A program made the position numbers and the translations under genes. From Candidatus Latescibacterota bacterium (GTDB taxonomy: Bacteria > Latescibacterota > UBA2968 > UBA8231): a stretch of DNA of 64,000 nucleotides. Location of the stretch: positions 4,416,001 through 4,480,000 of the forward strand of contig OZ242005.1 in NCBI GenBank assembly GCA_965204725.1. Direction: 5' to 3'. Every line of letters starts with the position of its first letter. Positions within the stretch are counted from its first letter, which is position 1. The notes beneath the pieces were generated by a model that worked only from the letters and a program-made list of their open reading frames with translations, was not told the origin of the DNA and did no database searches. Positions 1,807-18,181 of the stretch are shown here, piece after piece.

Positions 1807-3612
1807 TCAGTCCAATAGGGAAAATCCGGTGTAGCCGCGGCGGTCTTCCACGCCTTCTACGCCGCCTTGGGGAAAGTATTCCCCCCAGCGCCGGCTGACC
1901 TTTCGCGCGGTGTCTTCGTCCGCTATTAGCTCGTCCGGGTATCCGGGTTTCATGCGGCAATCCAAGACGATCGGCGGCGTATAGCAGGGGTGGTGGCGAC
2001 GAAGTTGGACGGCGGCGGGATAGGTGTCGGCCGCCGGCTCAAACCGGGTAAAGGTATTCCAAAGAAAGGTGATGTTCTTGGCTGCGGCGCGGGCGTCGTC
2101 CACTAAAAATATCAGCGGCCAAGCGGCGACGGCCCGGTCTTGGGCGAGGTGCTGGGCGTAGCTGGGATCTTCCTCGTACGTTGGGCCTTGCACCGCGAGG
2201 GCACCGGGGCAATAGACCTCGACGGCGCGGGCACCGCCGGGCAAGGCGTCGCTGAATTCCCGGGGCAATTCGCAGATCGGATCACCCACGCCTAGGAGGA
2301 TCCCTTTGCTGCCTTGGTTCACGGCCGGTCCTGTGTAGTCAAGGGTATCCATGGCGAGGTTGGCGATGACGAACAGGTCGGTTTCGAGCCGCGCCCGCGC
2401 TAGGGCATACGCGAGCACTTGCCGGAAGTCGCCCAAGTCCAAGGGGCGGTCGATTACGACCAAGAACTTGGTGAGGTTGAGCTGGCCGCCGTCCTCGCCC
2501 AAGATGCGAAAGGCGAATTTCATGGCCTCTCGTGGGTAGCGCTCCTCAACGACGATGGCCGCCAGCGAATGATAGCCGGTCTCGCCGTAGCTCCACATGG
2601 CCTTGATCGCGGGCATTACCAGCTTGCTCAAGGGCGTCATTAGCTGCTGGATGTAAGTGCCGAGGAACATGTCCTCCTGCGGCGGCTTGCCTACTACGGT
2701 GGCCGGGAAGATGGCGTCTTTGCGGTGGTAGAGACGCTTGGCTTGGAGCACTGGATAGTCGTGTTGCAGCGAGTAATAGCCGTAGTGATCGCCAAAAGGT
2801 CCTTCGGGCTGGCGCACGTGCGGCAAGACCACGCCCTCAATGGCGAATTCGGCTTCGGCAATAAGGGGCAGGCTGGGGCTTGGTACGCGGCGCAGGCGCT
2901 CGCCCTGCAACAGGGAGGCCAACATCAGCTCGGGCAAATCCTCGGGCAGGGGCGCGATCGCTGCTAGAATCAGGGCCGGCGGCCCGCCGACGAAGACGAC
3001 CAGCGGCAATTCTTCGCCCCGCTGCTCGGCGACGTGGTAATGGAATCCGCCGCCTTTCTGGATTTGCCAGTGGACGCCGAGGGTCTGAGAGTCGTGGCGT
3101 TGGATGCGGTACATGCCGAGGTTGTGGTGGCCGGTATCGGGGTGTTGGGTATAGACCAGCGGCAGGGTGATGAAGTGCCCGCCGTCCTCGGGCCAAGTTT
3201 TGAGCAGGGGTAAGCGCGCCAGATCGGGCGGCGACTGCACGCATTCGCTAATGGGGCCTTTGCCGACGGTCTTCAGCCCGACCTTCAGCGCAGCGGGGAT
3301 CAGGTTTTTGTGCGGCCAGAGCTTGCCCAGCGAGAGCGACGGCAGGTCTTGGGCCAACTGCACTAGCTGCGCGATAAACTGCTCCGGCCTAGGGCCAAAG
3401 GCCAAATCGACGCGCCGAGCCGTGCCAAAGAGGTTGGTGACGCAGGGAAAGTCCGCACCCTCAACGTGGGTAAAGAGCAGGGCCGGACCGGCCGCGGCGA
3501 GGACGCGACGATGGATCTCGGCGATTTCGAGCTCCGCGGAAACCGGGGCGTCCACGGTGACGAGCTCGCCTTCGCGGCGCAAGAGGTCGAGGAATTGGCG
3601 CAGGTTGTGCAT
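1807..3612 (-). CDS. ubiD: UbiD family prFMN-dependent decarboxylase (long form, possibly menaquinone/futalosine pathway)
   Basis: NLGMYR, EGPFGDHYGYY and GKPPQED motifs. Confidence 0.9.
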   Translation of the reverse strand: MHNLRQFLDLLRREGELVTVDAPVSAELEIAEIHRRVLAAAGPALLFTHVEGADFPCVTNLFGTARRVDLAFGPRPEQFIAQLVQLAQDLPSLSLGKLWPHKNLIPAALKVGLKTVGKGPISECVQSPPDLARLPLLKTWPEDGGHFITLPLVYTQHPDTGHHNLGMYRIQRHDSQTLGVHWQIQKGGGFHYHVAEQRGEELPLVVFVGGPPALILAAIAPLPEDLPELMLASLLQGERLRRVPSPSLPLIAEAEFAIEGVVLPHVRQPEGPFGDHYGYYSLQHDYPVLQAKRLYHRKDAIFPATVVGKPPQEDMFLGTYIQQLMTPLSKLVMPAIKAMWSYGETGYHSLAAIVVEERYPREAMKFAFRILGEDGGQLNLTKFLVVIDRPLDLGDFRQVLAYALARARLETDLFVIANLAMDTLDYTGPAVNQGSKGILLGVGDPICELPREFSDALPGGARAVEVYCPGALAVQGPTYEEDPSYAQHLAQDRAVAAWPLIFLVDDARAAAKNITFLWNTFTRFEPAADTYPAAVQLRRHHPCYTPPIVLDCRMKPGYPDELIADEDTARKVSRRWGEYFPQGGVEGVEDRRGYTGFSLLD

Positions 3613-3716
3613 GGCGGCTTGTGGTGGGGGTGGAAGGTCAGGTTGGTCTTGAATATATAGAAAGACCGGTCCGTTACAATGGATCGGTCAGCTTATAGGG
3701 AAATTCGTGGGGCTGG

Positions 3717-3745
3717 TTGAAGGCTGGGCTGGTTATCTATATATT
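3717..3745 (+). promoter_or_regulatory. sigma70-type promoter upstream of the defence-like operon
   Basis: TTGAAG-17 nt-TATATT; same -10 hexamer as the tRNA promoter. It lies inside the tracked ORF start, which favours ATG 3848 as the real start. Confidence 0.55.
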
Positions 3746-3847
3746 GAAAAAATTGCAAAACGGGCACTGGTCCCACTGGATCACGAGGACGAGGCGTTGG
3801 AGTGCGAGGCGGTCCGGTATTGGGTGCTAGGATTGGGGCTCAAAGAG

Positions 3848-5980
3848 ATGAGATTGAAAAGGAAAATAACTGCACAATTCTGGGGGGCTAAAGGACTTAG
3901 CGTTCGTGCATCTAATTGTCTGTCAAGGGCAAATATTACAGACGAACAAGAACTAATCGAGAAAGTTACAACTCTTGATTTTCTGCTTGCCCTCAGAAAC
4001 TGTGGTAAACAAACAGCCGAAGAGATTTGGGCATTTCTCACGAACTTAAAATCTATCTCCAACCACCATCAAAGAGTAGAAGCTACATCGTCCAATTCGG
4101 GCGATGATCGTTCTGCCGAAGCACAATCAGTTTTTGTTCCGCTTTTGAACATAGAGGTATCCATACATATATGGGAAGTCCTCCAAAATACTCCTGTCGA
4201 TAGTATCCGATGGAGCGTTCGGACACAAAACGTAATCGGCTATCAGGGGTTGCAGGAACTAGCTGAGATTGCCGAACTTTCCCCTGAAGAGTGGCTCAAT
4301 TTTAGAAATTTCGGAGATACCTCTTTGACAGAAATTCAAGAGCGCACGGCAGAAATAATCGATCAACTTAGGGCTAACCCCGATGGTATTGAGCCGAGCA
4401 AAGAGCAATCTGTCTTTATTCCGCTTCTGAACACAAAAATATCCGCCCACACATGGGAAGCAATTCAAAACATGTCTATTCATCAATTCAACTGGAGTGC
4501 TCGAACACAAAATGTTCTCCGTCGGCAGGGCTTCAAAACGATTGCCGAGATTGCCGGATTTTCCCCTAGAGAGTGGCTCAATTTTGGCAATTTTGGACGC
4601 AAATCTCTGACTGAGATTCAGGAAACAGTTAATAGGATCGTTGCGAATACTGACCTGATATGTCTTGATTCGGTGAATGAGCATTCTGCTGAGGAGCTAT
4701 CTGAAAACTCTGGTGGTCGTCCCTTGCGTCCAAACGATCCCGGCTGGATTCCCGCTTTCGCGGAAATGACGACGAACGGCTCTACGGCTTGCCCAACACG
4801 ACCCAAGGTGGGTTTTCAGACAGATTCTGAAGTATCGCAGATTCAAACACTCGCCAACCTTGGCGACGTAGTTTTTCAATCCCTTCAAACTCGCCAACAG
4901 AAAATTATTGCATCCTACTACGGTTACAAGGAAGTACCTAAAAAATTACATCAAATTGGTGAAATGCTCGGAGTTACCCGTGAGCGAGTCAGGCAGATTA
5001 AGGCAGGGGTCAATAAGAAAATCAATCAAGGCGCGGACAACCACCTAATCAAAACCATAATCTCCTATCTATTGAGCCAGTCCATCTACGATGTTCTCGC
5101 GAAGGATGGTGGATGGTGTTCTGTCAAAGACCTCCGGGAAAGTATTCATCAGCGGCTGGGGTGGGAAGATAGCGATCAGTGGATTATCGACTGGTTTGAT
5201 GAAGCATTCGGCGAGGCGTGGATATGCTTAGGGACAGACGATTACAAAATTATTGATGGCACCTGTTATCTGAGATCAGAAGAACACATTAAAGATGTTT
5301 TTACAGAATTTGTGGCGAGACTTCAACGTTATGGCTATCGGCCTTTAGCATTGGAAGAATGCCAATATCTCATTCAAAAAAAAGACGAAGCTGATTTCGA
5401 TCCAGATTATCTGCTTAATAAAATTGTAAGCCATCCCGCTTTGAAAGTTCATCAGTATGGAAAAACACTCATCGGGCTAAAGGAGTGGACTTGGTTTAGT
5501 CCTGAAAAACCAACAACTGCCACAGGACTGGTCTCACTCATCGAATGGTATCTCCGAATGACCAATGAACCCACCACGGCAAAAGCAATTGCCAATGGGA
5601 TAGGGAGTGAACTCGGCAATTTTAGGTTGACGTCTTTTGATGTTGCCGACATCTGCGAAAAACAGCCTTATCTTTTTTTCGTAAATGACAATGGGACCTA
5701 TGGCTTAGACCTTTGGGAGAGAGCCCCAAAATATCGGCAAGCCCTCGCACGGTTACTGTCAGATGAACCGTTACCTATTGAGCGGATTGCCGAGCTATTG
5801 TCCCCCCAAGACCCAGAGGAGACGAGGCTTATTGTCGCAGTATTGAACTTTTATACAGATTTGTTTGTGGAAGCGATGCCTTTTGAGTGGACATTAAAGT
5901 TGCAGGAGGACAAAATTGAGGCAAAAATAGATTTTGACTATACTAGGCTCACTTTTGAAGACTTAATGCCTAAATTATGA
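3848..5980 (+). CDS. Protein with three RNA polymerase alpha-CTD-like (HhH) repeats, a sigma70 region-4 HTH and an uncharacterised C-terminal region
   Basis: Repeats LSVRASNCL...LRNCGKQTAEEI, WSVRTQNVI...FRNFGDTSLTEIQE and WSARTQNVL...FGNFGRKSLTEIQE; sigma4 motif LHQIGEMLGVTRERVRQI. Confidence 0.8.
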   Translation: MRLKRKITAQFWGAKGLSVRASNCLSRANITDEQELIEKVTTLDFLLALRNCGKQTAEEIWAFLTNLKSISNHHQRVEATSSNSGDDRSAEAQSVFVPLLNIEVSIHIWEVLQNTPVDSIRWSVRTQNVIGYQGLQELAEIAELSPEEWLNFRNFGDTSLTEIQERTAEIIDQLRANPDGIEPSKEQSVFIPLLNTKISAHTWEAIQNMSIHQFNWSARTQNVLRRQGFKTIAEIAGFSPREWLNFGNFGRKSLTEIQETVNRIVANTDLICLDSVNEHSAEELSENSGGRPLRPNDPGWIPAFAEMTTNGSTACPTRPKVGFQTDSEVSQIQTLANLGDVVFQSLQTRQQKIIASYYGYKEVPKKLHQIGEMLGVTRERVRQIKAGVNKKINQGADNHLIKTIISYLLSQSIYDVLAKDGGWCSVKDLRESIHQRLGWEDSDQWIIDWFDEAFGEAWICLGTDDYKIIDGTCYLRSEEHIKDVFTEFVARLQRYGYRPLALEECQYLIQKKDEADFDPDYLLNKIVSHPALKVHQYGKTLIGLKEWTWFSPEKPTTATGLVSLIEWYLRMTNEPTTAKAIANGIGSELGNFRLTSFDVADICEKQPYLFFVNDNGTYGLDLWERAPKYRQALARLLSDEPLPIERIAELLSPQDPEETRLIVAVLNFYTDLFVEAMPFEWTLKLQEDKIEAKIDFDYTRLTFEDLMPKL
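4693..4827. mobile_element. 135-bp MITE inserted in frame in the alpha-CTD/sigma4 gene
   Basis: Imperfect 16-bp terminal inverted repeats (GGAGCTATCTGAAAAC / GTTTTCAGACAGATTC) with TGA on both sides; internal GGATTCCCGC...GCGGAAATGAC hairpin; homologous to intergenic copies at 29055, 48550 and 63464. Confidence 0.8.
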
Positions 5981-7617
5981 GAGATTCGCACCGAATGATT
6001 TTGCCGCAACATCAACAACCAATAACCGTTCGACTTGCGCGGGAAGAAGATATTGACGGCGCGAAGCGAATTGCGGATCAACACCGTACGGAATTGGGGT
6101 TTGTCAACATCGCCATTTTGCGGGTAGCACAAAGCAAAGAATGGCTTCTTGTTGCAGCCGAATGGGAGAATCAGAAAAAGTGTGATGTAGTCGTTGGATT
6201 TGCAAATTTTCGGATCAAACGAGATAAAAATGCAACGCTGTACGAAATTGCAGTAGTTGATTCACACAGACGTACAGGAGTCGGGACCCGTTTGCTGAGC
6301 GAATTAATTCGACGTGTTCATCTAGCGGGCGGGCAATATGTTCGTCTCAAGTGTCCACAAGATCTAAGTGCCAATAAATTTTACCAAAAATTCGGATTTC
6401 GGCATGGCGAAGCAGAGCAACGTAAGAAGAGACGGCTACAAGTGTGGTACTATCATATTCCCTTAATGCACGGCTCAGGAGCGGAAACATCAGTTACTCC
6501 TTTTATTCGCATAGCTGATAAGCAGGCTTTGCAGCAACCTTTCACATGGGAGAACGAACTTCACGCAACCGCACGTTTTTACGCTTCCCTGACAGTCAAA
6601 CCGGATGAAATGAGGACATTGCATCGCCTCTGGCATAAACATGCACACGACTTTGACTGGAAGTTCGGCAAACCGAATCCATTTCAACGAGTGCTTATCT
6701 CTCCCGTAGTTGCCCACAGGTACACCTTCGATTTCGTCCGAGAACTGAAACGGACAGGTGAAACGGAAGTGGTCATGTTCGATTCTGGTGGCTATTTCGT
6801 CCAGAAAGGAGACATCTCTTATTACGATCTTCATCGGAAACTCTATGAATACTATCAGCAGGAGGATTGGGCGGATATCTATGTTCTGCCAGATAATCCA
6901 CCACTCAGTGGAGACTCACTGCGTTCCGCAGAAGCGAAGATAAAACAAACTGTTGAGGGTAGCCTGCGACTTTACGGCGACCTTTCTTACGAAGTTCAGC
7001 AGAAAGCGATGCCTGTCGTTCACGCAACGAGAAGTGAACATCTCGACTATTGCCTGAGACAATACGCTAATTTTAAGAATATCGGTTTCGGCTCATTTCC
7101 AACAAGAGGAACTTCAAATTCTATCAACCGATTGAACATCAACGCGCTAATGATTCTCCGACAACTGACTCGGATGCTGGATTCTGAGGATGTAAAACTA
7201 CATACCTTTGGTATTTCAACACCACCCGCAATTTACCTGCTATCGCTGGCTGGTGTACATTCTTTTGACTCTAATGGTTGGATGCGGTCTGGTGGATATG
7301 GTAAGGTATTCCTCCCATTTATGCGGGGCTATCTAGTCACTTTCAATTCTCGGAGGAATGGGAGTTTGAATGAAACAGAATTCAAATTGTGGAAAGAAAA
7401 TATAAAGCATGATTGTCCGTTCTGCGGTTCCTTCGAGCGGCTTTCAAATAACCGATGGGATCGAATTATGCACAATCTGATAGTTATGTCAGAGTTAGAA
7501 ACACATCAAAGGACACCCCGAACTGATATGTTACGAGAGTTATCAGGAACGTACTATCGTATGTCACAAAGCTTGATAAGTGAAGACTTGTGTCCTGTTA
7601 GTAATCACGACCTTTAA
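5977..7617 (+). CDS. GNAT acetyltransferase fused to a tRNA-guanine transglycosylase-like (TGT/DpdA-like) domain
   Basis: N-terminal GNAT motif IAVVDSHRRTGVGTRLL plus ANKFYQKFGF; C-terminal TGT motifs FDSGGY, IGFGS, HTFG, SFDSNGW and a Zn-site-like HDCPFC...HNL. ATGA overlap with the upstream gene. Confidence 0.82.
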   Translation: MRDSHRMILPQHQQPITVRLAREEDIDGAKRIADQHRTELGFVNIAILRVAQSKEWLLVAAEWENQKKCDVVVGFANFRIKRDKNATLYEIAVVDSHRRTGVGTRLLSELIRRVHLAGGQYVRLKCPQDLSANKFYQKFGFRHGEAEQRKKRRLQVWYYHIPLMHGSGAETSVTPFIRIADKQALQQPFTWENELHATARFYASLTVKPDEMRTLHRLWHKHAHDFDWKFGKPNPFQRVLISPVVAHRYTFDFVRELKRTGETEVVMFDSGGYFVQKGDISYYDLHRKLYEYYQQEDWADIYVLPDNPPLSGDSLRSAEAKIKQTVEGSLRLYGDLSYEVQQKAMPVVHATRSEHLDYCLRQYANFKNIGFGSFPTRGTSNSINRLNINALMILRQLTRMLDSEDVKLHTFGISTPPAIYLLSLAGVHSFDSNGWMRSGGYGKVFLPFMRGYLVTFNSRRNGSLNETEFKLWKENIKHDCPFCGSFERLSNNRWDRIMHNLIVMSELETHQRTPRTDMLRELSGTYYRMSQSLISEDLCPVSNHDL

Positions 7618-7627
7618 TGGAGGAACA

Positions 7628-8440
7628 ATGGTGCGCTCGCACATCTTAAAAGGATTTTCGGACTTGGAGTCGGCATTGTGGGTCCACAAATATCACCCTG
7701 GACTTAAAACAATTCGGAAAATGGTCAAAACCGCTTCGGAAAATGGATACACAGTAACGGATACAGCGCGTTATGAAGCGGTTCAGCTATTAAGCGAATG
7801 GGGATTAGCGGATGGAAAAAGCAGGTCATTAACTCCCGAGGGCGAGGCTTTCTATTCCTTGTGGGAAACGAAACGAAGTACCGCAATTGATTTTCTGCAC
7901 GCACGGCAATACGGTCTATGGACACAAAACGCCCCTGACCAAAACATTGCGTCGTGGGCGTACAAAAATATCTGTGACTACCTGTGGGTACGGCAAACGC
8001 TTCCGGGAGATCGGGATCTGGTGGCTTATATACATGACCTCCGAGCCTCTGACGAAGTGGTGATTCCACCGGACATCGGCAATGCGTTCTCCAATAAATC
8101 GATCAATGACGCTTACGATTGGCTCCTGCCGTTAGACCCGCCTGTATTAGAGAAGGACAGCGCGACGTTTGCACAACGGCCATTCTGTTCAACACCACTT
8201 TTTGTGATGGGGCTCGGTTATCTCGTGCGAGAATCCGATACGGCATTTGGGGATTTGGTTAAAATTGACGAAGCGCGAAAACAGGCCATCTGTCGCTTCT
8301 GTCTTATTGACGAAACCGGTTTCGATCTCATGCTTGACGAGGCATTGCGCCAAGTCTCGTACCTTTCGGTGCAACGGAGTTGGGAAGGAATTTACATGGT
8401 GTTGCATCAGGCACCGCAAATCGAAGATTTCATAGATTAA
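7628..8440 (+). CDS. Hypothetical protein, probably winged-helix BrxA/SspB(DUF4007)-like
   Basis: GGAGG RBS; WGL...LTPEG...FLH...LW pattern reminiscent of DUF4007/BrxA; position in the operon. The family is inferred. Confidence 0.5.
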   Translation: MVRSHILKGFSDLESALWVHKYHPGLKTIRKMVKTASENGYTVTDTARYEAVQLLSEWGLADGKSRSLTPEGEAFYSLWETKRSTAIDFLHARQYGLWTQNAPDQNIASWAYKNICDYLWVRQTLPGDRDLVAYIHDLRASDEVVIPPDIGNAFSNKSINDAYDWLLPLDPPVLEKDSATFAQRPFCSTPLFVMGLGYLVRESDTAFGDLVKIDEARKQAICRFCLIDETGFDLMLDEALRQVSYLSVQRSWEGIYMVLHQAPQIEDFID

Positions 8441-8469
8441 TAAGGATAAGAAAATAATCTACAAACGAA

Positions 8470-9003
8470 ATGCGTTGGCAATCTTATCATAGGAAACTTC
8501 TCGCATTAGCGGAAACTAACGAGACTTTGACGGCCTCCCAGCAGGTGGTCTGTCAATTTTTGCAACAGGAGATTAGAGACTACCAGCAACGCATTGATCT
8601 CTGGGGTGCTCCGGGCGTTGGCAAGACGTTTCTCGCGCACCATCTCCATCACTGTGCAGACGGTCTCTATTTTTCGTCTGTAGAAACTTGTTCACACACA
8701 GAAGTTTCCCCAAATTCGGTGGTTATCATTGACAACGCACCGCATGACCGAAGTTCAGCGCGGTCAATTTTCGGGGACATGCTTTGGGCAGGTGCGTCGT
8801 CGGTCATTTTGGTGACACGCCAACCCATCAACGATGCGGTTCGGAGCGTTGAATTGGGCTTAACAGTTCAGGAATTGGCACAAGTTGAGGATGTGATGCG
8901 TAGGATTTTCGGCCATTTCCCGCCCGATGACCTGCGCGATGTTGACCACCTCCGTTGTGAAATTTGGCAACGGCTTAAAATTCTCGCGGAACGAAAATTA
9001 TAA
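8470..9003 (+). CDS. Small P-loop NTPase (BrxB/BrxF-like position)
   Basis: Walker A GAPGVGKT and Walker B-like VVIIDN; 177 aa directly upstream of the large ATPase. Confidence 0.6.
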   Translation: MRWQSYHRKLLALAETNETLTASQQVVCQFLQQEIRDYQQRIDLWGAPGVGKTFLAHHLHHCADGLYFSSVETCSHTEVSPNSVVIIDNAPHDRSSARSIFGDMLWAGASSVILVTRQPINDAVRSVELGLTVQELAQVEDVMRRIFGHFPPDDLRDVDHLRCEIWQRLKILAERKL

Positions 9004-9018
9004 AAAGGAGATTCTGAT

Positions 9019-12000
9019 ATGGCTTTAGCCGAAATCATCCGAAAAAGCACTGTGGTCGATACACCACGTGCGTCAGACCTCGCGACGAGGCCAGCGGAAT
9101 GGACAGATATCTTTCAATTTCACGTCTCGACGCATGTCGCGATAGCCGATATGACAGATAAGTGGGATGCGATTCTCAAAAACCTCCTGCGCGGCCGTTC
9201 GGCAACAGGACTCATCCACGCCGATACGGGTTACGGCAAAACCTCGACCGCAGCCGCGCTTTGGCATTATGCGGAACAACGCGAGATTGTCGCGGTTCCG
9301 CCATTTGTGTGGAATAGCATCGCCGACATGCTCATTGCAACTCACGGGTGGGTCTGCCATCGCTTGAAGGCGAAGAGACCGGATCTGATTCTTGGTTTAG
9401 TGGAGCAGTATGAGAGGCTGATTGCGAGTAGTGACGAAGACAGGGCGGTTAAAATAAGCCAAGAGCAAGATGTTCCGCTCGATTATGCCAGAAAGTCTGT
9501 CCAGTCCCTCAAAGCGCAGGGCGATCTAATGGATGCGGTTTCTGCAAATCGCCTCATTGACTACTTGCGAATGGCGACTTCAACTCTTTTGGAGGCGGAA
9601 TACAAAGGGTTGCTCATTCTGCCAGATGAGTTCGAGCTTTTTGCCGATACGAATCCAGACATCGCCAAGAATTTCGCGGAACTCAAGGACTTTATCTTTC
9701 CCATTTTCCAAGAAGATAGCCTTCCAATAGGCTGCGTGGTTTTGACCTACAGCCGAACATTTTCCGATATCCAACTCAGAGCACCTTACATATTTGCCCG
9801 ATTCGACAAGCCTGAAGGGAGTTTGATCGATCTTGAGCAAGCATACGGAAAAATTGAAGAAAACAGGTCCTTCGCTCACGAACTTTGGGAGAAGTTATCC
9901 GTTGGATGTAACCTAACCGACGAGGAGCAAAAGGCAATTGATCCAGATGTGCTGTTTGCCCTCGGGCAATTTTTGGGACACCCGCGTACGCCCCAACTGA
10001 TTAGCGGCCCTCGGTCTGTCGTTGCAACGTTTCGCCGTGCCGCAAAACACTACGGTGAAAAAAAACAGCCTTATTCCATTTTCGATTTTTGCGAAGACTA
10101 TATCTCTCAAGGTCTCATTTGTTTCAACAACCAAGAAATCGACGCGGTCAAAGCGCATACCTCTATCATGAGCCAGCCCATCATTGGTGCTGATGAGGCA
10201 CGACAGCGTGTTGTTAAACTGCTGTGCGTCTGTCCAGATGGCGTACCGGAGGAATTTTTTAGGAAGCACGGTATTTCCGATGAAGATCGCTTGGCGGTTG
10301 TCCAAGGGTTGTTGGGCACACACGTCATTACGAAAATCATTGGGCCGGCCTTAACCGGCTACAAGGATGATTTGCAAGCCGGTGACGCGCTCATCGAGAT
10401 TCTCAAAATTCTGCGGAGTCAGTACAATCCCGCGAGTGAAGAAACCCATCGCGCCGCTGTCAGATCATTTGCGAATTACATTTTGCCCGAAGTTCTTCAA
10501 CAACGCACGGGAGCTGCTCACACGGGTTGGAGAGATCTGGAAAAGACGGAGGGGGATATAGAACCGATTTTTCAGGCTCGACTCACAGGGACGTCTCTTC
10601 GGGATTATCCGCAACGGACTCTGACTGTGCATGTTGGAACCGAGAAATTTCAAAAAATTAGTCCTGCCTACCGAGAGAGCCAGTTGTTCACTTCTTTTAT
10701 TTTTCGGACTCAAGGTGAATCATCGAGTCATAGTCCAAACACCTGTGATATTCGCGCAGATGGTCTCTACTTTAGCCTCAACATCTCCAAAGCAATCGGC
10801 AACCGGGAAATTCCAAAAGATATTGGCAAACTCGGCGACCTTTTTTTGCCAGAGTCCGTTACCCCTTCGCTACTCCTGTCTATGCTTGACTTCTTTGACC
10901 AAGAAACGACTATCGCCAAAATCAAGGAGCTAAAACAGGAAACACATGTAAAGCTCTTGAAGTCCCGAATCCGAGACCAACTGATCGGCTACTTCTTTTC
11001 CGCTGAGGTCAAGACGAGTGCCGAATCACAGCAGGCAGATTTGGCACAAGTACCTGCAGGGAAAAATTTTGTCGAACGGGCCTTGGGCGTACTGATAAAG
11101 AAAAAATTCAAATCATATCGCTCTGTCGCAGTCTCACACCAATGGCAAAAGAATTTGGGAATCTACATGCAGGCATTGTCGAGAAATGCCGAAAGTCTCG
11201 GCATGCGGCGCGGTGAGGAACCTACTAGAGAGATGACTGCTAGCGAAGTACCAAGGCTGTTCAATGTTGGTCAGCACACCACTTTTGCCCATACGCTCTA
11301 CCCAAACGGTGTTTTGCGCGATCTCTTGCTCGTCAATGAAACTGACGCCAATGGCAAAACCATAGCGGAAGGCGTTGAAGTTAAAAATAACCAAAGTCCA
11401 GTCGTGGTCTATTTTAAGCTACATGACGTGGAAAAGCGCGTTCTAGAAATGCTTGAAGCAAGCACGGAAAGCATTGACGTTGATGGTAACTCGGTCAACG
11501 CAGTGAAATACCACGAGGTTTTCCAACAGGAAGAGAGCCTGGGATACCTCAATACTGAGATTGAAGAGTTAATCAAGTTATTGACGACAAGGGGCTTGGT
11601 CGATAAAAGACAGTATCGAGGGATGGATTATCTGTATCGTGTTGAGACGGAGATCAATTTGGCCGAACTGCAACGCAGGTTCAACCGACTCAAGGATCTT
11701 GAGGCACTGGCAAAATCAAAAGACTTCGACTTCACACTGAAAATAGACGGGGATCACTCTTTTGAATCAGTGCAGGCAGATTTCCGAATAAACGACATTG
11801 GGGCCAATGAAGTCCGCAAGGATTCACTGCGGCAAAAGCTCAATTCGATTGAGAACGCTTTCAAGACACAGTGTACGGAGTGGCTAATGAAAGCCCAAGA
11901 GGAACTCAGTCGAAAAGCCCGAGAGATCGAAATATTGAGGTTGGATCCGCCGAATGTACTGAAGCAAGAAACCGGACACCCGGCAACCGAGTTCTCAGTC

Positions 12001-13122
12001 CTACTATTTCAGGATATACGCAATGAGATTCGGAAGGCTTACAGTGCTATTCCCCAAGAAATAGACAAAGTTAAAAAACAAGCACAAGCAATCCTCAATA
12101 AGAAGATACAAGAATATCTGTCCAACCAAATCCCTGAAAAGGCGATTACAGTGGCGGCAGATTTTCGCGGTTCCATGCAGACGATTGACAAAGAGATCGA
12201 AGCACTCCGAGAGGAGCGTTCAGAAGCTGAACTGCTTTATGAGTTATTTGAAAAATGGCGCAACCTCGCTAGAGATGTTGAGCGTAATCGACTGACGATG
12301 ACAGATGCCCAAGAGATTGATGGGGTAAAAAGTCTCTGTGATAGGCTGGACGAGGAACAGAAGCGGATTAAACGCTATCTTGCGGATCGGACGAAAACTG
12401 TCAAGCAGGTTCTGGAAAACTACGAGTACTTTTTCAATCAAATTGCCGCGATCAAGGGCGAATTTGACCAAGTCTCTGAACGCCGCAAAGATGAGTTTAT
12501 CCGGTTTCAAGCCGATATTGAAGACCAACTCCGTCAACTCATTGACAAACCCGATATTGGCGAACAATTCAATCCCAACGACGTAGAAGGATCGTACAGC
12601 CGAGTCCGCGAAAAAGCGGTTGGGAAGATTCAGGAATTTGTCATCAAATCCGCAATTCAGCGTATTACAGAACTGAAAAGCGAATTGATGAAACCGCTTG
12701 AGGTTTTTACCGTCAGTGACCAGATCAAAAATCAGGCAAAGGAAATGAGCGACGCGTTATATGCTTTGGAGGAGAGGATCAACGAGATGAACGTTGGTCT
12801 GAAACCCGATGACGTTAATGACCTGTTGTCTGCATGGGTGGAATCGCTCAAGTCTATTCGTGAGGCGGGAAATGAGGTTTTCACAAAATGGGAAGGCATT
12901 CAAGATCAACTCAGATGTGACAAAAGTGAGTTGGGTCCGAAGGAAGTAGTGCTGCTGGATATGATTGAAGCTAATGCGGATAAGGATTTCACAGAACTGA
13001 TTATCGATCTCAGGCAGTCAAAAAATAAAGTGTTCGGTTCGACTTCAGAGATCATTGAGAGTCTTGAAGAGTTATATCAACGCAATTGGTTGAACATCAA
13101 AATCTCACGAACGATAGGATAG
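9019..13122 (+). CDS. Large P-loop ATPase with a C-terminal coiled coil (BrxC-like)
   Basis: AAGGAG RBS; Walker A ADTGYGKT, Walker B LLILPDEFE; long E/K/Q-rich helical C-terminal third; followed by a PglZ-like gene. Confidence 0.72.
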   Translation: MALAEIIRKSTVVDTPRASDLATRPAEWTDIFQFHVSTHVAIADMTDKWDAILKNLLRGRSATGLIHADTGYGKTSTAAALWHYAEQREIVAVPPFVWNSIADMLIATHGWVCHRLKAKRPDLILGLVEQYERLIASSDEDRAVKISQEQDVPLDYARKSVQSLKAQGDLMDAVSANRLIDYLRMATSTLLEAEYKGLLILPDEFELFADTNPDIAKNFAELKDFIFPIFQEDSLPIGCVVLTYSRTFSDIQLRAPYIFARFDKPEGSLIDLEQAYGKIEENRSFAHELWEKLSVGCNLTDEEQKAIDPDVLFALGQFLGHPRTPQLISGPRSVVATFRRAAKHYGEKKQPYSIFDFCEDYISQGLICFNNQEIDAVKAHTSIMSQPIIGADEARQRVVKLLCVCPDGVPEEFFRKHGISDEDRLAVVQGLLGTHVITKIIGPALTGYKDDLQAGDALIEILKILRSQYNPASEETHRAAVRSFANYILPEVLQQRTGAAHTGWRDLEKTEGDIEPIFQARLTGTSLRDYPQRTLTVHVGTEKFQKISPAYRESQLFTSFIFRTQGESSSHSPNTCDIRADGLYFSLNISKAIGNREIPKDIGKLGDLFLPESVTPSLLLSMLDFFDQETTIAKIKELKQETHVKLLKSRIRDQLIGYFFSAEVKTSAESQQADLAQVPAGKNFVERALGVLIKKKFKSYRSVAVSHQWQKNLGIYMQALSRNAESLGMRRGEEPTREMTASEVPRLFNVGQHTTFAHTLYPNGVLRDLLLVNETDANGKTIAEGVEVKNNQSPVVVYFKLHDVEKRVLEMLEASTESIDVDGNSVNAVKYHEVFQQEESLGYLNTEIEELIKLLTTRGLVDKRQYRGMDYLYRVETEINLAELQRRFNRLKDLEALAKSKDFDFTLKIDGDHSFESVQADFRINDIGANEVRKDSLRQKLNSIENAFKTQCTEWLMKAQEELSRKAREIEILRLDPPNVLKQETGHPATEFSVLLFQDIRNEIRKAYSAIPQEIDKVKKQAQAILNKKIQEYLSNQIPEKAITVAADFRGSMQTIDKEIEALREERSEAELLYELFEKWRNLARDVERNRLTMTDAQEIDGVKSLCDRLDEEQKRIKRYLADRTKTVKQVLENYEYFFNQIAAIKGEFDQVSERRKDEFIRFQADIEDQLRQLIDKPDIGEQFNPNDVEGSYSRVREKAVGKIQEFVIKSAIQRITELKSELMKPLEVFTVSDQIKNQAKEMSDALYALEERINEMNVGLKPDDVNDLLSAWVESLKSIREAGNEVFTKWEGIQDQLRCDKSELGPKEVVLLDMIEANADKDFTELIIDLRQSKNKVFGSTSEIIESLEELYQRNWLNIKISRTIG

Positions 13123-13127
13123 CGATT

Positions 13128-14255
13128 ATGCTAGACCTTTTAGAGAATCTTCCCTGTATAACCGACCTGCCAGAAACGACGCTAGGGCTGTGGGAAATAT
13201 GCCTGTCTGATATTTGGTGTCCCAATTCGCTGGCAGAATGGCGAGGTGTTGTTGATGCACCACGGGAAGTTCCCACAAAGGCGACGCTTTTTGTGAATTT
13301 TTCAGAGGCTGAAAGTAAAGAATTGACGGACACTTTCGGTTTCCCTACGATTGATCTCCCGGCGGTTCCCCCAATCGAATGGGTAAATCAGAAATTGCCC
13401 GACCGTTTTAGTGCCTTGTGTACAGATGAATCGAAACTCTTAAAACAATCACAACTCGCCCAAACCGTTACAGATCGCGTATCATACATGCTTCCCGACA
13501 TTGTTGTTTTTATGGTACTCGATGGGCTGTCATCGTATGATGTCACAGACTGGTCATTCCCAGAACCTTGGCGTGTAGTGTGTGAGCCGTGTCTTGTTGA
13601 TGGACTAAGTGTCACAACAAACAGTATGTGTCGATTGATCGGATCACCACCTTTAACGCATCGTTTGTTTGAGTTAGGGTACGTACAGCGACTTGGCTTT
13701 TCATATTGGGAACGCTCTCGAAACCAACTTACCAACGTACTCTTTTCTGAATTTCCACCAAGCCAACTGTTTCGCTTCACAACCTTTGAAGAGATTTTAG
13801 ATAGATTGCAGAATACGGACTTACCTAATCGAACTTTCATCCAAATCGTCCGCACAGGACTCGATGGAGTCTGCCATAGTCATAGAGAAAAGCCGAATAT
13901 AGATATTATGCTTAACCAGCTTAAATTGGATATTGAACAAATTTTTGAAGCAGTTGGCTCATCTCAGAAAGTCGTGCGGATTTTTGTAACTAGCGACCAT
14001 GGAATTCTTTGGTTCACAGAACAAAAAGTGAAGCCGTTTAAGTCGGGCAGTACTTCTCCCCGTTACACTTATGCGAACCCCTCATCTGACGTGTCTGGAA
14101 TCACTATTGCTGAAGCTGGAGAGACGTTTACAGTCTTAACAGGCGATGAAGTCATCGCTAGAAACCGAAAGGTGACGGAATGGGGATTTCATGGCGGAGT
14201 TTCTGCACAAGAGTCTTTTATTCCGTTATTCGACATTACCCTAAATAGTAGGTGA
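13128..14255 (+). CDS. PglZ-like alkaline-phosphatase-superfamily protein (short form)
   Basis: VFMVLDGLS, SVT nucleophile region, FVTSDHG and FHGGVSAQESFIPL motifs typical of PglZ domains. Confidence 0.8.
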   Translation: MLDLLENLPCITDLPETTLGLWEICLSDIWCPNSLAEWRGVVDAPREVPTKATLFVNFSEAESKELTDTFGFPTIDLPAVPPIEWVNQKLPDRFSALCTDESKLLKQSQLAQTVTDRVSYMLPDIVVFMVLDGLSSYDVTDWSFPEPWRVVCEPCLVDGLSVTTNSMCRLIGSPPLTHRLFELGYVQRLGFSYWERSRNQLTNVLFSEFPPSQLFRFTTFEEILDRLQNTDLPNRTFIQIVRTGLDGVCHSHREKPNIDIMLNQLKLDIEQIFEAVGSSQKVVRIFVTSDHGILWFTEQKVKPFKSGSTSPRYTYANPSSDVSGITIAEAGETFTVLTGDEVIARNRKVTEWGFHGGVSAQESFIPLFDITLNSR

Positions 14256-14260
14256 TTCAA

Positions 14261-15469
14261 ATGGCAGAGATCAACTTGCGAATTGGCACTGAATACGAAA
14301 ACGGCGAACTAATTTATATGAACGCAACAGGGTCACGCGCCGTATTCATTTGCGGCAAGCGTGGTTCTGGCAAAAGCTACACGATGGGCGTCATCATCGA
14401 AGAACTGTTCAACCAAGAACAAGGCGAGGCAACAATTATCATCGCCGATCCGATGGGGATCTACCACACGATGGCTCTCCCGAACCACACTCAAGCAGAT
14501 GAAGTTCGTCATGCCGGATTCCTTACCAGCGGCTTTCCAGTTCGGCTCATTGTCCCTGGCGACCCCTTGGTTCGATACGGAGATGCAGTGGTGTTGGCGA
14601 AACTGCGAGAGAACGGCGTCGAGGTTGTTCCGCTCCAAATTAACGCCGCAGACCTCTCTCCCGAGGCTTGGTGCGAACTATTTGACATCAGCATGAACGA
14701 AGTGATGGGGATCATTTTGTGGCGAGCAGTTGATACACTTCTCGAAAAAGACCAGCATTTTACTATTGATGACATCCTTGCGGCAATCGAGAGCGATCCA
14801 AGAGCAAAAGATACCTCTAAAGAAGCTTTGGAAAACCGTTTAACGGCGGCGAATAGATGGGGAATCTTCTCAGAAGACCCCACCTCATTGAATGACGTGT
14901 TTCTCTTGAACCAGATCAATGTTTTAGACCTAAGTGTGATTGATGCGGGTACAAAAGGACTACGCAACATGGTGCTTGACGTTGTAGCCCATCGTCTTTT
15001 TTCTGAACGAACACGAGAAAGACGTAGAGAAGAATTTGGTTTGTCAACGAAGCTACCACGGGTTTGGCTGGCGATTGATGAAGCCCATCAATTTGTGCCG
15101 AAAGGACGAGCCTCGCTCTGCAAGGAAATGCTCATTCGTTGGGTAAAGGAGGGACGGCAACCCGGTCTCAGCCTCGTCGTAGCGACGCAACAGCCGGCCG
15201 CGATTGATCCTGAACTGTTATCACAATGCGACGTCATTGTCGCGCACAAAATTACAACTTGGGACGACATCAATGCACTTGACCGACTGAGTGCAACATA
15301 CATGGCGGGAGACTTAAAGGGCTATATTCGCAACTTGAATCGCAGGGGTGAGGCTCTACTGGTTGATGATGAAACCGAGTCTGTTACGACAATTCGAGTC
15401 CGCCCGCGATTTAGTTCGCACGGCGGTGCTGAAATTCAAGAGAAGACTGTGAGGAAATTTTTATTTTAG
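14261..15469 (+). CDS. HerA/FtsK-family ATPase (DUF87-like)
   Basis: GKRGSGKS Walker A, IADPMG, LAIDEAH Walker B, KEGR, ATQQP. Confidence 0.85.
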   Translation: MAEINLRIGTEYENGELIYMNATGSRAVFICGKRGSGKSYTMGVIIEELFNQEQGEATIIIADPMGIYHTMALPNHTQADEVRHAGFLTSGFPVRLIVPGDPLVRYGDAVVLAKLRENGVEVVPLQINAADLSPEAWCELFDISMNEVMGIILWRAVDTLLEKDQHFTIDDILAAIESDPRAKDTSKEALENRLTAANRWGIFSEDPTSLNDVFLLNQINVLDLSVIDAGTKGLRNMVLDVVAHRLFSERTRERRREEFGLSTKLPRVWLAIDEAHQFVPKGRASLCKEMLIRWVKEGRQPGLSLVVATQQPAAIDPELLSQCDVIVAHKITTWDDINALDRLSATYMAGDLKGYIRNLNRRGEALLVDDETESVTTIRVRPRFSSHGGAEIQEKTVRKFLF

Positions 15470-15506
15470 CGTCTAATTCACGTCTCCTATCTCCGAAAGG
15501 CTTTCC

Positions 15507-18181
15507 ATGACTACACATAACGACGAATTCGGTGCGCGCACCCGGCTAGAATGCAGCGGCGGTAGCGGCGTCCTGTACCGCATTCAAACGCTAGAAGAAG
15601 AGGGCATAGCCGAGGTGAGCCGGCTGCCCTATTCGATCAAAATTCTGCTAGAGGCCGCGCTCCGGCAGTGCGACGGGTTTGAGATTACCCGCGAGGATGT
15701 CGAGCGCATTGCACGCTGGAGTCCTGAGATGGCGGGCAAGGAAGAGATTCCCTTCAAGCCAGCGCGCGTGGTGATGCAGGATTTTACCGGCGTCCCCGCC
15801 GTGGTTGACTTGGCCGCGATGCGCGACGCGGTGGCCGATTTGGGCGACGACCCGGAGAAGGTCAATCCCCTGATTCCGGTTGACTTGGTCATCGATCATT
15901 CGGTCCAAGTCGATTACTACGGCATGCGCGAGGCACTGGCCATGAACGCCGCCCGCGAGTTCGAGCGCAACCGCGAGCGCTACGAGTTTTTGCGCTGGGG
16001 CCAGAAGTCCTTTGACAATTTTCGCGTGGTGCCGCCGGCCACCGGCATCGTGCATCAGGTCAATCTAGAATATCTGGCGCAGGTGGTGCAGGAGCAGGAC
16101 GGCGCGTTCTACCCCGACAGCCTAGTGGGTACGGACAGCCACACGACGATGATCAACGGCCTCGGCGTCCTCGGCTGGGGAGTGGGCGGCATTGAGGCCG
16201 AAGCCGTGATGTTGGGGCAGCCGATCTACATGCTTTTGCCCCAAGTGGTCGGCGTCAAGCTAACGGGCGCGTTGCCCACTGGAACGACGGCTACGGACTT
16301 GGTGCTGACGGTGGTGCAGATGCTCCGGGCGCATGGCGTGGTTGGCAAATTCGTCGAATTTTACGGCCCGGGCTTGAGCGAACTGAGCTTGGCCGACCGG
16401 GCGACCCTCGCCAATATGGCCCCGGAATACGGGGCGACGACGGGCATTTTCCCGGTTGACGAGGAGACGCTGGCCTACTTGGTGCTCACCGGGCGCAAAA
16501 AAGCGGTGGTCGAGCGAGTCCGCGCCTACATGGAAGCGCAGGGTATGCTCTACCGCGCCGAGGGGCCGGACCCCGTCTTCAGCGAGTACTTGGCATTGGA
16601 TATGGGGACCGTTGAGCCGAGCTTGGCCGGCCGACGCGGCCGCAGGATCGGGTCCCGCTCAAGGACGTGCCAACGGCCTTCGCCGCCTCGCTGACAGACC
16701 GCTTTGAAGTGGCAGACCGCGGCAAAAAGGTCGCCGTCAATTTGGGCGAGCAGGGGGCGGTTGAGCTGGCCCACGGCGCAGTGCTCATCGCCGCCATTAC
16801 CTCCTGCACGAATACCAGCAACCCGAGCGCGATGGTGGGGGCGGGGCTGTTGGCGCGCAATGCAGCCGAGCGGGGCCTCTCCGTACCGGCTTACGTCAAG
16901 ACCAGCTTGGCACCGGGCAGCCGGGTCGTTTCCCGCTACCTCGACGCGGCTGGCCTCACCGACAGCCTAGAGGCCCTCGGCTTCCACACGGTCGGCTACG
17001 GTTGCACGACCTGCATCGGCAACTCAGGGCCTCTGCCGGAAGAAATCGCCGCGGCCGTGGCCGACAACGACTTGGTGGTGTGTAGCGTACTCAGCGGCAA
17101 CCGCAATTTCGAGGGCCGGGTCCACGCGACGACGAAGGCCAATTTCCTCGCCTCGCCGCCTTTAGTCGTGGCCTACGCGCTCGCGGGCCGGGCGACGATC
17201 TCCTTTGAGCGCGAGCCGCTGGGCCGCGACCAAGCCGGCCGCGAGGTATTCCTGCGCGATATATGGCCCTCGCCGGACCAGATCCGCGACGCACTGGCCC
17301 ACTCGCTGACGCCCAAGATGTTCGAGGAAGAATACGGCAATGCGTTCCGTCAAAACGAAACTTGGAACGCCATTCCCGTGCCCGAGGGCAAGCGCTACGC
17401 TTGGGCCGAGGAGAGCACGTACATTCGCAAGCCGAACTTCTTCGACGGCCTCACCAAAGAGGCCCAGCCGATCCAGCCGATTCGAGGCGCACGAGTCTTA
17501 GCCCAGCTCGGCGACAGCGTGACGACCGACCACATCTCGCCGGCCGGTGCGATTGCCGTAGGCAGTCCCGGGGCCGAGTATCTCGCCAGCCGCGGCGTTG
17601 AGCGCAAGGATTGGAACAGCTATGGCTCCAGACGCGGCAACCACGAGGTGATGATGCGGGGCACGTTTGCCAATATCCGCATCCGCAATGAGCTGGTGCC
17701 CGGCGTTGAGGGGGGTTATACGCGCCATCTGCCTTCGGGCGAGCAGATGACCATTTACGAGGCGGCGATGCGCTACGGAGCGGAAGGCGTCCCGTCGATC
17801 GTTATCGCGGGCAAGGAGTACGGAGCGGGTTCGAGCCGCGACTGGGCGGCCAAAGGCCCCTTCCTGCAAGGCGTCAAGGCCGCCATCGCCGAGAGCTACG
17901 AGCGCATCCACCGCTCAAACCTGATTGGGATGGGCATTCTGCCGCTGCAATTTTCCCCCGGTGAAGACCGCCACGCGCTGGGGCTGACCGGCGAGGAAGT
18001 GTACGACGTCGAGGGCCTCGACGACGACTTACAGCCGGGGCAGGTGTTGGAGGTGGTCGCCCAGAGCACGGCAGGCGAGAAGTGCTTTGCGGTGATATGC
18101 CGGATAGACACTCCCGTGGAGATCAACTACTACCGCAACGGGGGGATCCTGCACACAGTACTCAGGCGGATGGCCGAGTAG
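15507..18181 (+). pseudogene. acnA: Aconitate hydratase A split by a single-base frameshift near 16631 (pseudogene or sequencing error)
   Basis: [44 protein letters not shown] and GSSRDWAAKG motifs spread over two ORFs; adding one C at GCCGGC^CGACG restores [12 protein letters not shown]. Confidence 0.88.

Follow-up and report, generated by a model that had tools for sequence, protein, structure and literature searches.

A GNAT–TGT fusion protein in an accessory BREX-related cassette of a Latescibacterota bacterium: a candidate DNA-marking enzyme

What does an enzyme modify when a GNAT acetyltransferase is joined to a transglycosylase barrel of the TGT superfamily and encoded among BREX-like genes? 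The question is raised by a 64,000-nucleotide stretch of Candidatus Latescibacterota bacterium (assembly GCA_965204725.1, contig OZ242005.1, positions 4,416,001 to 4,480,000), hereafter the window. Its gene g2 is the second of seven co-oriented genes (g1 to g7) of an inserted cassette that also encodes an SspB-like protein (g3), a BrxC-like ATPase (g5), a PglZ-like protein (g6) and a HerA-type ATPase (g7). An earlier note, made from the letters of the window, had proposed g2 as a candidate for a new DNA base modification. The comparisons presented here make it on balance probable that g2 marks DNA in the fashion of DpdA, as the modifying component of a defence cassette related to BREX and of the type called ‘BREX-Related Capture’ (BRC).

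The acetyltransferase–TGT fusion announced in that note proves to be real. The N-terminal part of g2 matches Acetyltransf_1 in Pfam above the cut-off (PF00583, residues 58-141, E 6.9e-12). The TGT assignment of the C-terminal part follows from structure and not from the Pfam score, residues 290-488 giving a weak match to PF01702 (20.4 bits, under the gathering cut-off of 26.3), a family that several relatives of g2 carry in precomputed annotation. An AlphaFold2 model built from 28 relatives has a mean pLDDT of 85.8 and a pTM of 0.85, with low confidence in the disordered linker (residues 166-194). When this model is used for structure search, residues 192-537 align best with the archaeosine TGT 1iq8 (Z 24.9 over 295 residues, root-mean-square deviation 3.0, 18% identity), then with bacterial TGT (3unt, Z 21.7), DpdA (7ui4, Z 21.1 over 289 residues), QTRT2 (Z 20.4) and Cap10 (9ntn_B, Z 18.6 over 265 residues). 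Residues 15-161 align with GNATs of the Ard1/Naa10/RimI type (Z about 20-20.8), and Foldseek concurs on both domains, with a TGT-fold probability of 1.00. The model displays the TIM barrel with C-terminal zinc subdomain that is characteristic of the TGT superfamily; the protein ends directly past this subdomain, and of the 577 residues in the archaeosine TGT chain, the model aligns with 14-353 and no others. Judged from the model, with Z scores of 21-25 to solved TGTs and DpdA besides the Pfam match, g2 is a genuine fusion of a GNAT with a TGT barrel, the resemblance being far beyond chance.

The motifs on which the proposal had been built are all present in the translation: the acetyl-CoA loop RRTGVG at residues 98-103, DSGGY at 269-273, SFDS at 429-432, and the HxCxxC...H zinc site as H478-D-C480-P-F-C483 followed by H499. 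Conservation in the TGT part was assessed over 111 family members, of which protein search supplied 28 and fetched loci 83. All 111 have D269, D306 and D431; the zinc ligands H478, C480 and C483 are found in 109 of the 109 members that reach so far, and H499 in 108 of 108. The earlier observation that both catalytic Asp motifs and the zinc site are kept thus extends to every family member reaching them. The family therefore has the three aspartates of the TGT superfamily, whose roles as general acid/base, base-binding residue and nucleophile are taken from the available text of the DpdA paper (PMC10164549). In a profile of unfused relatives, D431 falls on the nucleophile segment, which reads F-D-S in 1iq8 and I-D-S in 7ui4, and a C-x-x-C...H-N-L segment falls on the zinc motif of 1iq8. 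Position 349 (Gln in 72 members, His in the other 39) may correspond to His181 of DpdA, a base-edge residue.

The acetyltransferase half is equally well kept. Across 57 family GNATs, R98 is present in 53, G101 in 44 and G103 in all 57, together with N133 (55 of 57) and the catalytic tyrosine Y136 (57 of 57); an L-K-C-P strand is specific to the GNATs of this family, with K125 in 56 of the 57. The fold, the R/Q-x-x-G-x-G/A loop and the catalytic Tyr of the GNAT family are all found in g2. Given the fold scores (Z 21-25), the invariant Asp residues and zinc ligands and the intact GNAT loop, the enzyme looks active, as far as residues can predict it.

Placing the barrel within its superfamily relies on family-model scores, profile-to-PDB E-values and structural Z scores, at identities of 13-18%. 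Neither TIGR00430 (bacterial Tgt) nor NF041059 (DpdA) matches g2 at E 0.01; the only TGT model of NCBIfam that does is TIGR00432 (archaeosine TgtA), with 19.1 bits against a cut-off of 350 (E 3.6e-4). The profile of unfused relatives retrieves 1iq8 best (E 7e-4), followed by 7ui4 (0.066) and Cap10 (0.15). The host has a separate canonical Tgt elsewhere in its genome (556 bits with PF01702, 517 bits with TIGR00430), as do all 11 other cassette genomes (at least 505 bits). By these family models g2 has its place in a clade of its own within the TGT superfamily, distinct from Tgt, TgtA and DpdA. The clade is rare: it numbers 106 cluster representatives among 1.84 billion at E 1e-30, rising to 207 at 1e-10 and to 605 at 1e-3. 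The clustering with housekeeping Tgt, which the earlier note had named as fatal to its proposal, is not what family-model scores give, g2 being additional to the canonical enzyme; the label ‘DpdA-like’, by contrast, has to be given up at the level of the family model.

Two identities were examined and rejected. A housekeeping Tgt is ruled out, since TIGR00430 does not match and the genome holds its own Tgt; archaeosine TgtA is dismissed because TIGR00432 lies far under its cut-off and the C-terminal RNA-binding domains are missing. What g2 shares with 1iq8 is the catalytic domain alone; this best structural and profile match includes the nucleophile Asp and the zinc motif, but the first zinc ligand of g2 is a His. 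The likeness to DpdA (PMC10164549, available text; 7ui4) comprises the barrel, the three invariant Asp, the zinc subdomain, the lack of RNA-binding C-terminal domains and the defence context. The two differ in that g2 has no DpdB (ParB-like ATPase) or DpdC (DUF328) neighbours, in that its family is fused or linked to a GNAT, and in that its partners are BREX- and Ssp-like instead of DpdD-K.

The association between the two domains was followed in a metagenome scan anchored on unfused TGT-like genes, in which 80 loci were kept from 285 relatives and read with hidden Markov models of the cassette genes. A g3 homologue adjoins the TGT-like gene in 65 of the 80, the remainder being mostly short contigs. 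Where the sequence runs through HerA and leaves room past it, which is so at 18 loci, a GNAT is always there: as a separate gene immediately before the TGT gene in 5, fused to it in 1, and after HerA as the last gene in 12. With no exception among the 18, the TGT clade has an obligate companion in the GNAT, and the fusion is a minority arrangement. A g1-like gene is present in 14 of the 18 (2 of the 4 others have no upstream sequence). Smaller assemblies also exist: L075, L090 and L091 have GNAT, TGT, g3 and g5 without PglZ and HerA, L062 and L063 consist of TGT and g3 only, and L097 of GNAT and TGT only.

TGT-like genes also lie on two contigs of viral classification. One, from IMG/VR (L101, 1163-12579), carries a fused GNAT-TGT of 528 residues with g3-like and g5-like genes; three other large open reading frames (ORFs), one with STAND/helicase-like P-loop matches, replace PglZ and HerA, and the locus is a variant cassette with different downstream genes. 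On the other, L102, a PHROGs scan of the neighbours of the TGT-like gene returned one family of unknown function.

The partners of g2 in the window are listed in Table 1. The ORFs of the cassette overlap at their ends or nearly abut, the stop of g1 overlapping the start of g2.

Table 1. Coordinates of the cassette and its genes and domains in the window
Feature	Position	Strand	Remarks
Whole inserted cassette, seven co-oriented genes	3613..15506	+	between 601-aa minus-strand gene and aconitase-family gene
g1, 757-aa DNA-binding protein	3707..5980	+	three alpha-CTD-like helix-hairpin-helix units, sigma-70 region-4 helix-turn-helix
g2, GNAT-TGT fusion gene	5977..7617	+	ATG start, 546 aa plus stop
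GNAT domain of g2	6019..6459	+	residues ~15-161; structural Z 20-20.8 to Ard1/Naa10/RimI
TGT-fold barrel and zinc subdomain of g2	6559..7587	+	residues ~195-537
g3, 286-aa SspB/DUF4007/BrxA-like DNA-binding protein	7580..8440	+	fold match; no Pfam match
g4, 177-aa small P-loop NTPase	8470..9003	+	weak AAA/STAND P-loop matches; conserved within cassette
g5, 1367-aa BrxC-like ATPase	9019..13122	+	N-terminal AAA_16 match, P-loop
g6, 389-aa PglZ/alkaline-phosphatase-like protein	13086..14255	+	sub-threshold PglZ matches
g7, 405-aa HerA/FtsK-type ATPase	14252..15469	+	Pfam DUF87 E 3.3e-19

The closest partner, g3, is identified by its fold. Its AlphaFold2 model (pLDDT 76) aligns with SspB 6juf_B at Z 14.0 over 252 of 286 residues, and at lower scores with BrxA 7zge (Z 8.2) and with 3bhw (Z 8.1); because conservation and model confidence begin near Met17, the true start may lie at 7628. 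Gene g1 matches PF03118 in 3 stretches (E 4.8e-35) and PF04545 (E 8.9e-10), with the remainder unmatched; it also matches the middle part of PglW (PADLOC, E 7.4e-9) and alpha-CTD and sigma-4 chains of the PDB, and its homologues are 420-1066 residues long. PF10923 (BrxC_BrxD) is carried by a few g5 homologues. For g6 the best matches are BREX_PglZ_2 in NCBIfam (E 6.5e-5) and PglZ in PADLOC (E 3e-3), with Pfam PglZ at E 1.3e-3 in the orthologue at L016; its invariant residues D146, T177, D260, H264, D304, H305 and H369 form the Asp/Thr/His pattern typical of alkaline phosphatases. PADLOC assigns g7 to HerA (E 2.7e-23) and mad8 (E 1e-22).

Several searches set bounds on these assignments. Pfam DUF4007 in g3 and DUF6079 in g5, including the orthologues at L016 and L017, are unmatched in searches up to E 10 and E 0.1, and PDB sequence searches with the g5 and g6 profiles gave chance-level rows only. 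The ESM Atlas offers leads only, a DpdG-like assignment of g3 at 0.87 and a cluster with 20% BrxC_BrxD for g5. No folE, queD, queE, queC, dpdB or dpdC match was found among the seven ORFs in Pfam, PADLOC or NCBIfam, in keeping with what had been read from the letters. MADS was considered as the identity of the system and discarded: only g7 matches (mad8), and no methyltransferase, MAD3-MAD4 pair or other MADS model was matched. A promoter and terminator scan of 3300-16000 was uninformative, giving 15 and 16 sites where chance alone would give 13.6 and 13.5.

A system of this composition has been described computationally. The available text of PMC12839542 (NAR, January 2026) reports BRC systems in 45 taxa, made up of PglZ, DUF6079 (BrxC-like), a STAND NTPase (BrxB-like), DUF4007 (BrxA/SspB-like), HerA/FtsK, GNAT and TGT, with the GNAT occasionally fused to the TGT and with DpdB and DpdC absent; it equates DUF4007 with SspB, a member of the DNA phosphorothioation module, and independently proposes that GNAT/TGT may mark host DNA. 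The cassette broadly fits this description, and the core of the marking idea is already published as a prediction. HerA/FtsK (g7), GNAT and TGT (fused in g2) and, by fold, the DUF4007/BrxA-like protein (g3) are present here; for PglZ, DUF6079 and the STAND NTPase there are candidates, namely g6 with its sub-threshold PglZ matches and invariant Asp/Thr/His pattern, g5 with a P-loop and PF10923 in a few homologues but no DUF6079 match in three orthologues, and g4 with weak P-loop matches. The predicted role of GNAT/TGT and the lack of DpdB and DpdC are common to both. The cassette differs in that g3 and g5 miss the Pfam models DUF4007 and DUF6079, g3 being tied to SspB by fold alone, and in that the conserved g1 stands outside the seven listed components (helix-hairpin-helix, alpha-CTD and RpoA do not occur in the main text of PMC12839542). 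Moreover, GNAT/TGT occur in a subset of the BRC loci of that text, whereas a GNAT accompanies 18 of 18 TGT-anchored loci here. New are the GNAT in every TGT-anchored cassette that reaches HerA, the adjacency of TGT and SspB-like genes, the usual extra alpha-CTD/sigma region-4 protein and the viral pair described below.

The cassette behaves like a horizontally acquired accessory element at one fixed site, because of its low GC content, the occupied, empty and remnant alleles of the same site and its patchy occurrence. GC content is 0.44-0.52 within it (about 3.7-15.5 kb) against 0.60-0.65 outside. The flanking genes are 11,894 bp apart in the window and about 90-290 bp apart in four of the five congeners without the cassette; in the fifth the distance is about 1.1 kb, and a 28-residue remnant of g3 lies within it. 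Of 60 related genomes, 8 encode the g2 protein: the same genus accounts for 4 (among 30 genomes) and a second genus for 4 (among 15), and the 15 genomes from 13 other genera yielded none. Eleven related genome loci come from Latescibacterota, Gemmatimonadota, Anaerolineae and Poribacteria metagenome-assembled genomes (MAGs), and 9 of them keep g2 to g7 in the order of the window. L017 has all six, with g4 shifted behind g5 and a g1 match of just 59 residues; L019 (10001-14394) is degraded, its GNAT-TGT being internally deleted and its g3 frameshifted, with no g5 to g7. At the closer orthologous loci g1 is the most divergent gene of the cassette (51-89% identity) and the HerA gene g7 the most conserved (71-98%).

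Further traces of the cassette were noted in passing. The g3 remnant (L106, 3480-3563, in genome G012 of the same genus) has 68% identity over its 28 residues, and its survival at the empty site suggests that the cassette was lost in G012 rather than never acquired. Decaying copies are also seen at L014 (13692-16850), where g5 is without residues ~200-506, and at L082 (12326-13146), which is without g5. Paralogues 37% identical to the TGT part lie at G052:C1:3683369-3684340 and G064:C1:1543-2529, in frames of 553 and 521 residues; G052 also holds the orthologous cassette gene. Among public runs, those labelled ‘sponge metagenome’ from two studies contain 72-96% of the sampled words of the g2 gene, and no RNA run is listed as containing it. 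Together with the related loci in MAGs of Latescibacterota, Poribacteria and Gemmatimonadota, this suggests a cassette in circulation among bacteria associated with sponges.

An enzyme that inserts a 7-deazaguanine needs a precursor, and the earlier note had asked for the host genome to be searched for que genes. These are present: FolE, a PTPS/QueD-like protein, a QueE-like protein beside a second QueC, QueC, QueF-II and Tgt are encoded, a set predicted to suffice for the supply of preQ0 and preQ1. Full-length QueC and QueF are found in 10 of the 11 other cassette genomes. As to arrangement, the first QueC gene adjoins QueF-II, and the second adjoins the QueE-like radical-SAM gene at G000:C1:4683393-4684681 (L005), about 200 kb from the window; close relatives have two QueC and more distant cassette hosts one.

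The pair also exists outside cellular genomes. One record of the phage collection carries this clade, the Thermocrinis Great Boiling Spring virus (BK013347.1, L103), which encodes capsid, portal and terminase and is a tailed virus. A 135-residue GNAT (36% identity) and, next after it, a TGT-like gene that has all three Asp motifs (35% identity) lie between hypothetical genes and those for a sliding clamp, a helicase, a PD-(D/E)XK nuclease and PolA, just upstream of the latter; none of the other cassette genes was found in this viral genome. Such a position in the replication module is where phage DNA-modification genes would be expected. The paper describing the virus does not discuss the GNAT/TGT pair. 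The viral TGT-like gene (L103, 4357-5282) is annotated with 257 residues, and its zinc part appears in a second frame (5034-5282, E 6.6e-11 with the family model), a sign that the record contains a frameshift or was misassembled.

How, then, might g2 work? DNA is the favoured substrate of the barrel, because the partners all belong to DNA-handling families, because the closest of them is SspB-like and because the viral pair stands among replication genes. Asp431 would attack C1' of a target deoxyguanosine in double-stranded DNA, Asp269 would assist the departure of guanine as acid/base, and a host 7-deazaguanine of the queuosine pathway (preQ0 or preQ1) would take its place. The SspB/BrxA-like g3, probably together with the fast-evolving g1, would choose and open the site, and one of the cassette ATPases may drive the reaction, as DpdB does for DpdA. 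An arrangement of this kind has a counterpart in SspBCD and type 4 BREX, where an SspB/DUF4007-like protein and a BrxC/SspC-like ATPase stand alongside a DNA-modifying enzyme (PMC12839542, available text); the modifier there is the PAPS-reductase-like SspD with a cysteine desulfurase, instead of a GNAT-TGT. Unmarked DNA would be acted upon by the PglZ-like g6, the BrxC-like g5 and HerA g7. With its intact acetyl-CoA site and catalytic Tyr, the GNAT would perform an acyl transfer in the same pathway, and the most economical form of this least certain step would be that preQ1 is N-acetylated on its aminomethyl group, either prior to insertion or once in the DNA.

The DNA-modification reading of the earlier note thus stands in so far as gene context points to DNA and precursors are available, and its novelty is reduced, the marking of DNA being in print (PMC12839542, available text). 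The N-acetylation of inserted preQ1 which it had added fares less well: the data lend it no direct support, and the fusion that prompted it is the exception, the GNAT being a separate gene behind HerA in 12 of 18 cassettes. An acetylated dPreQ1 is possible by analogy, in that PaMx11 gp48, according to the available text of PMC8989533, acetylates 5-aminomethyl-dU in DNA. That enzyme is likewise a GNAT-type acetyltransferase acting on the aminomethyl group of a modified base; it belongs to a phage and uses another base, the comparison with g2 being one of proposed activity, not of sequence. Beyond this, a portable pair of GNAT and TGT-like proteins might write an acylated 7-deazaguanine, for example N-acetyl-7-aminomethyl-7-deazaguanine, into DNA, as a BREX-like self-mark that replaces methylation or phosphorothioation in cells and as a genome shield in a hyperthermophile virus; this wider proposal is speculative and, as it stands, doubtful.

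A number of observations weigh against g2 as a DNA-marking enzyme. The closest solved fold and profile match of the barrel is a tRNA enzyme, archaeosine TGT, and in the aligned 1iq8 chain the first zinc ligand is Cys where the g2 family has His. The closest solved relatives of the GNAT are protein N-terminal acetyltransferases (Ard1, Naa10, RimI) and not nucleic-acid ones, and the place at the far end past HerA, which the GNAT occupies in 12 of the 18 unfused-anchored cassettes, is typical of effectors. Precursor supply discriminates little: control genomes have QueC in 13 of 14 and QueF in 7 of 14, so that 10 of 11 among cassette genomes is weak support; in G008, an Anaerolineae MAG of many contigs, no full-length QueC or QueF was seen, and the Thermocrinis virus has no annotated que genes. 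Full-text literature searches returned the computational paper PMC12839542 only and no experimental work on any member. The data fit DNA, tRNA or protein as the substrate of the TGT barrel alike and do not single out the base.

A protein substrate would make g2 a regulator. The barrel would attach a nucleobase to a protein, as Cap10 of type IV CBASS does at the N-terminus of a CD-NTase, or make a soluble base that keeps the system off, as proposed for TIM-B, and the GNAT would acetylate the N-terminus or a lysine of a cassette component, setting the state of BrxC, PglZ or HerA. Cap10 is a clear structural relative of g2, as scored above, a TGT-like barrel in immunity with the D-S-G-G-Y and F-D motifs common to both; it acts on protein, according to the title of its PDB entry, and it comes with a QueC-like partner (Cap9) that has no equivalent in the cassette. 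The N-terminal acetyltransferases at the head of the GNAT matches (Z 20-20.8) agree with such a role, which the available text of a preprint (10.64898/2026.10.19.760177) proposes for TIM-B domains, some of them coupled to GNATs. The solved nucleic-acid TGTs nevertheless outscore Cap10 (Z 21-25 against 18.6), the tightest gene partner is the DNA-binding SspB-like protein, and the viral pair has no defence component to regulate; a regulator is therefore judged unlikely. An effector, an option already raised in the earlier note, is held to be quite unlikely. Here the barrel would excise guanine from invading DNA and stay bound or leave abasic sites, or the GNAT would abort infection as a toxin, by acetylating charged tRNA or some other cellular target. 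The nucleophile and acid/base Asp required for base excision are indeed invariant, and 12 of 18 cassettes end with the GNAT, but the PglZ-like g6 is already a candidate effector with metal and nucleophile motif intact, and a BREX-like system without a marking enzyme could not distinguish self from non-self. A lytic virus, moreover, keeps the same pair among its replication genes, and the 50 best structural matches listed contain no GNAT toxin of the TacT or AtaT type, which is no exclusion.

The substrate suggested by the nearest solved structure would be tRNA of the host or of a phage: the barrel would exchange one of its bases and the GNAT would acetylate the same molecule or the amino acid it carries, altering translation during infection. 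Archaeosine TGT is that structure (Z 24.9; 1iq8 E 7e-4), and TIGR00432 (E 3.6e-4) is the only TGT match in NCBIfam. A tRNA enzyme is nonetheless very unlikely, as g2 has no C-terminal domain past the zinc subdomain, every cassette genome has its own Tgt and the partner proteins are all of DNA-handling families.

The known self-marks of BREX-type systems are methylation and, in type 4, phosphorothioation of DNA. If a GNAT-TGT indeed writes a deazaguanine-type base, this would be a third BREX marking chemistry, and if the GNAT acts on that base, a new natural DNA base would result. That a virus has a copy suggests that one and the same enzyme pair is used in both defence and counter-defence. A small, sequence-distinct family with fixed catalytic residues is a clean target for biochemistry, and a compact cassette (11.9 kb, one strand, overlapping genes) with natural empty-site controls lends itself to straightforward heterologous testing. 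The cassette is an additional case of a computationally described kind, to which it brings new comparative facts.

A second divergent TGT-like gene is found in the same genome (G000:C1:5079667-5080695; locus L002, ORF 1402-2595). Its 397-residue product scores 82.8 bits with PF01702, 81.7 with TIGR00432 and 24.4 with DpdA, and a tblastn search of phages with it returned Sulfolobus virus genes only. The gene is flanked by a BrxD-like ATPase and by an ATPase with a weak MAD3/restriction-AAA match, which makes L002 a possible further defence locus centred on a homologue of TGT.

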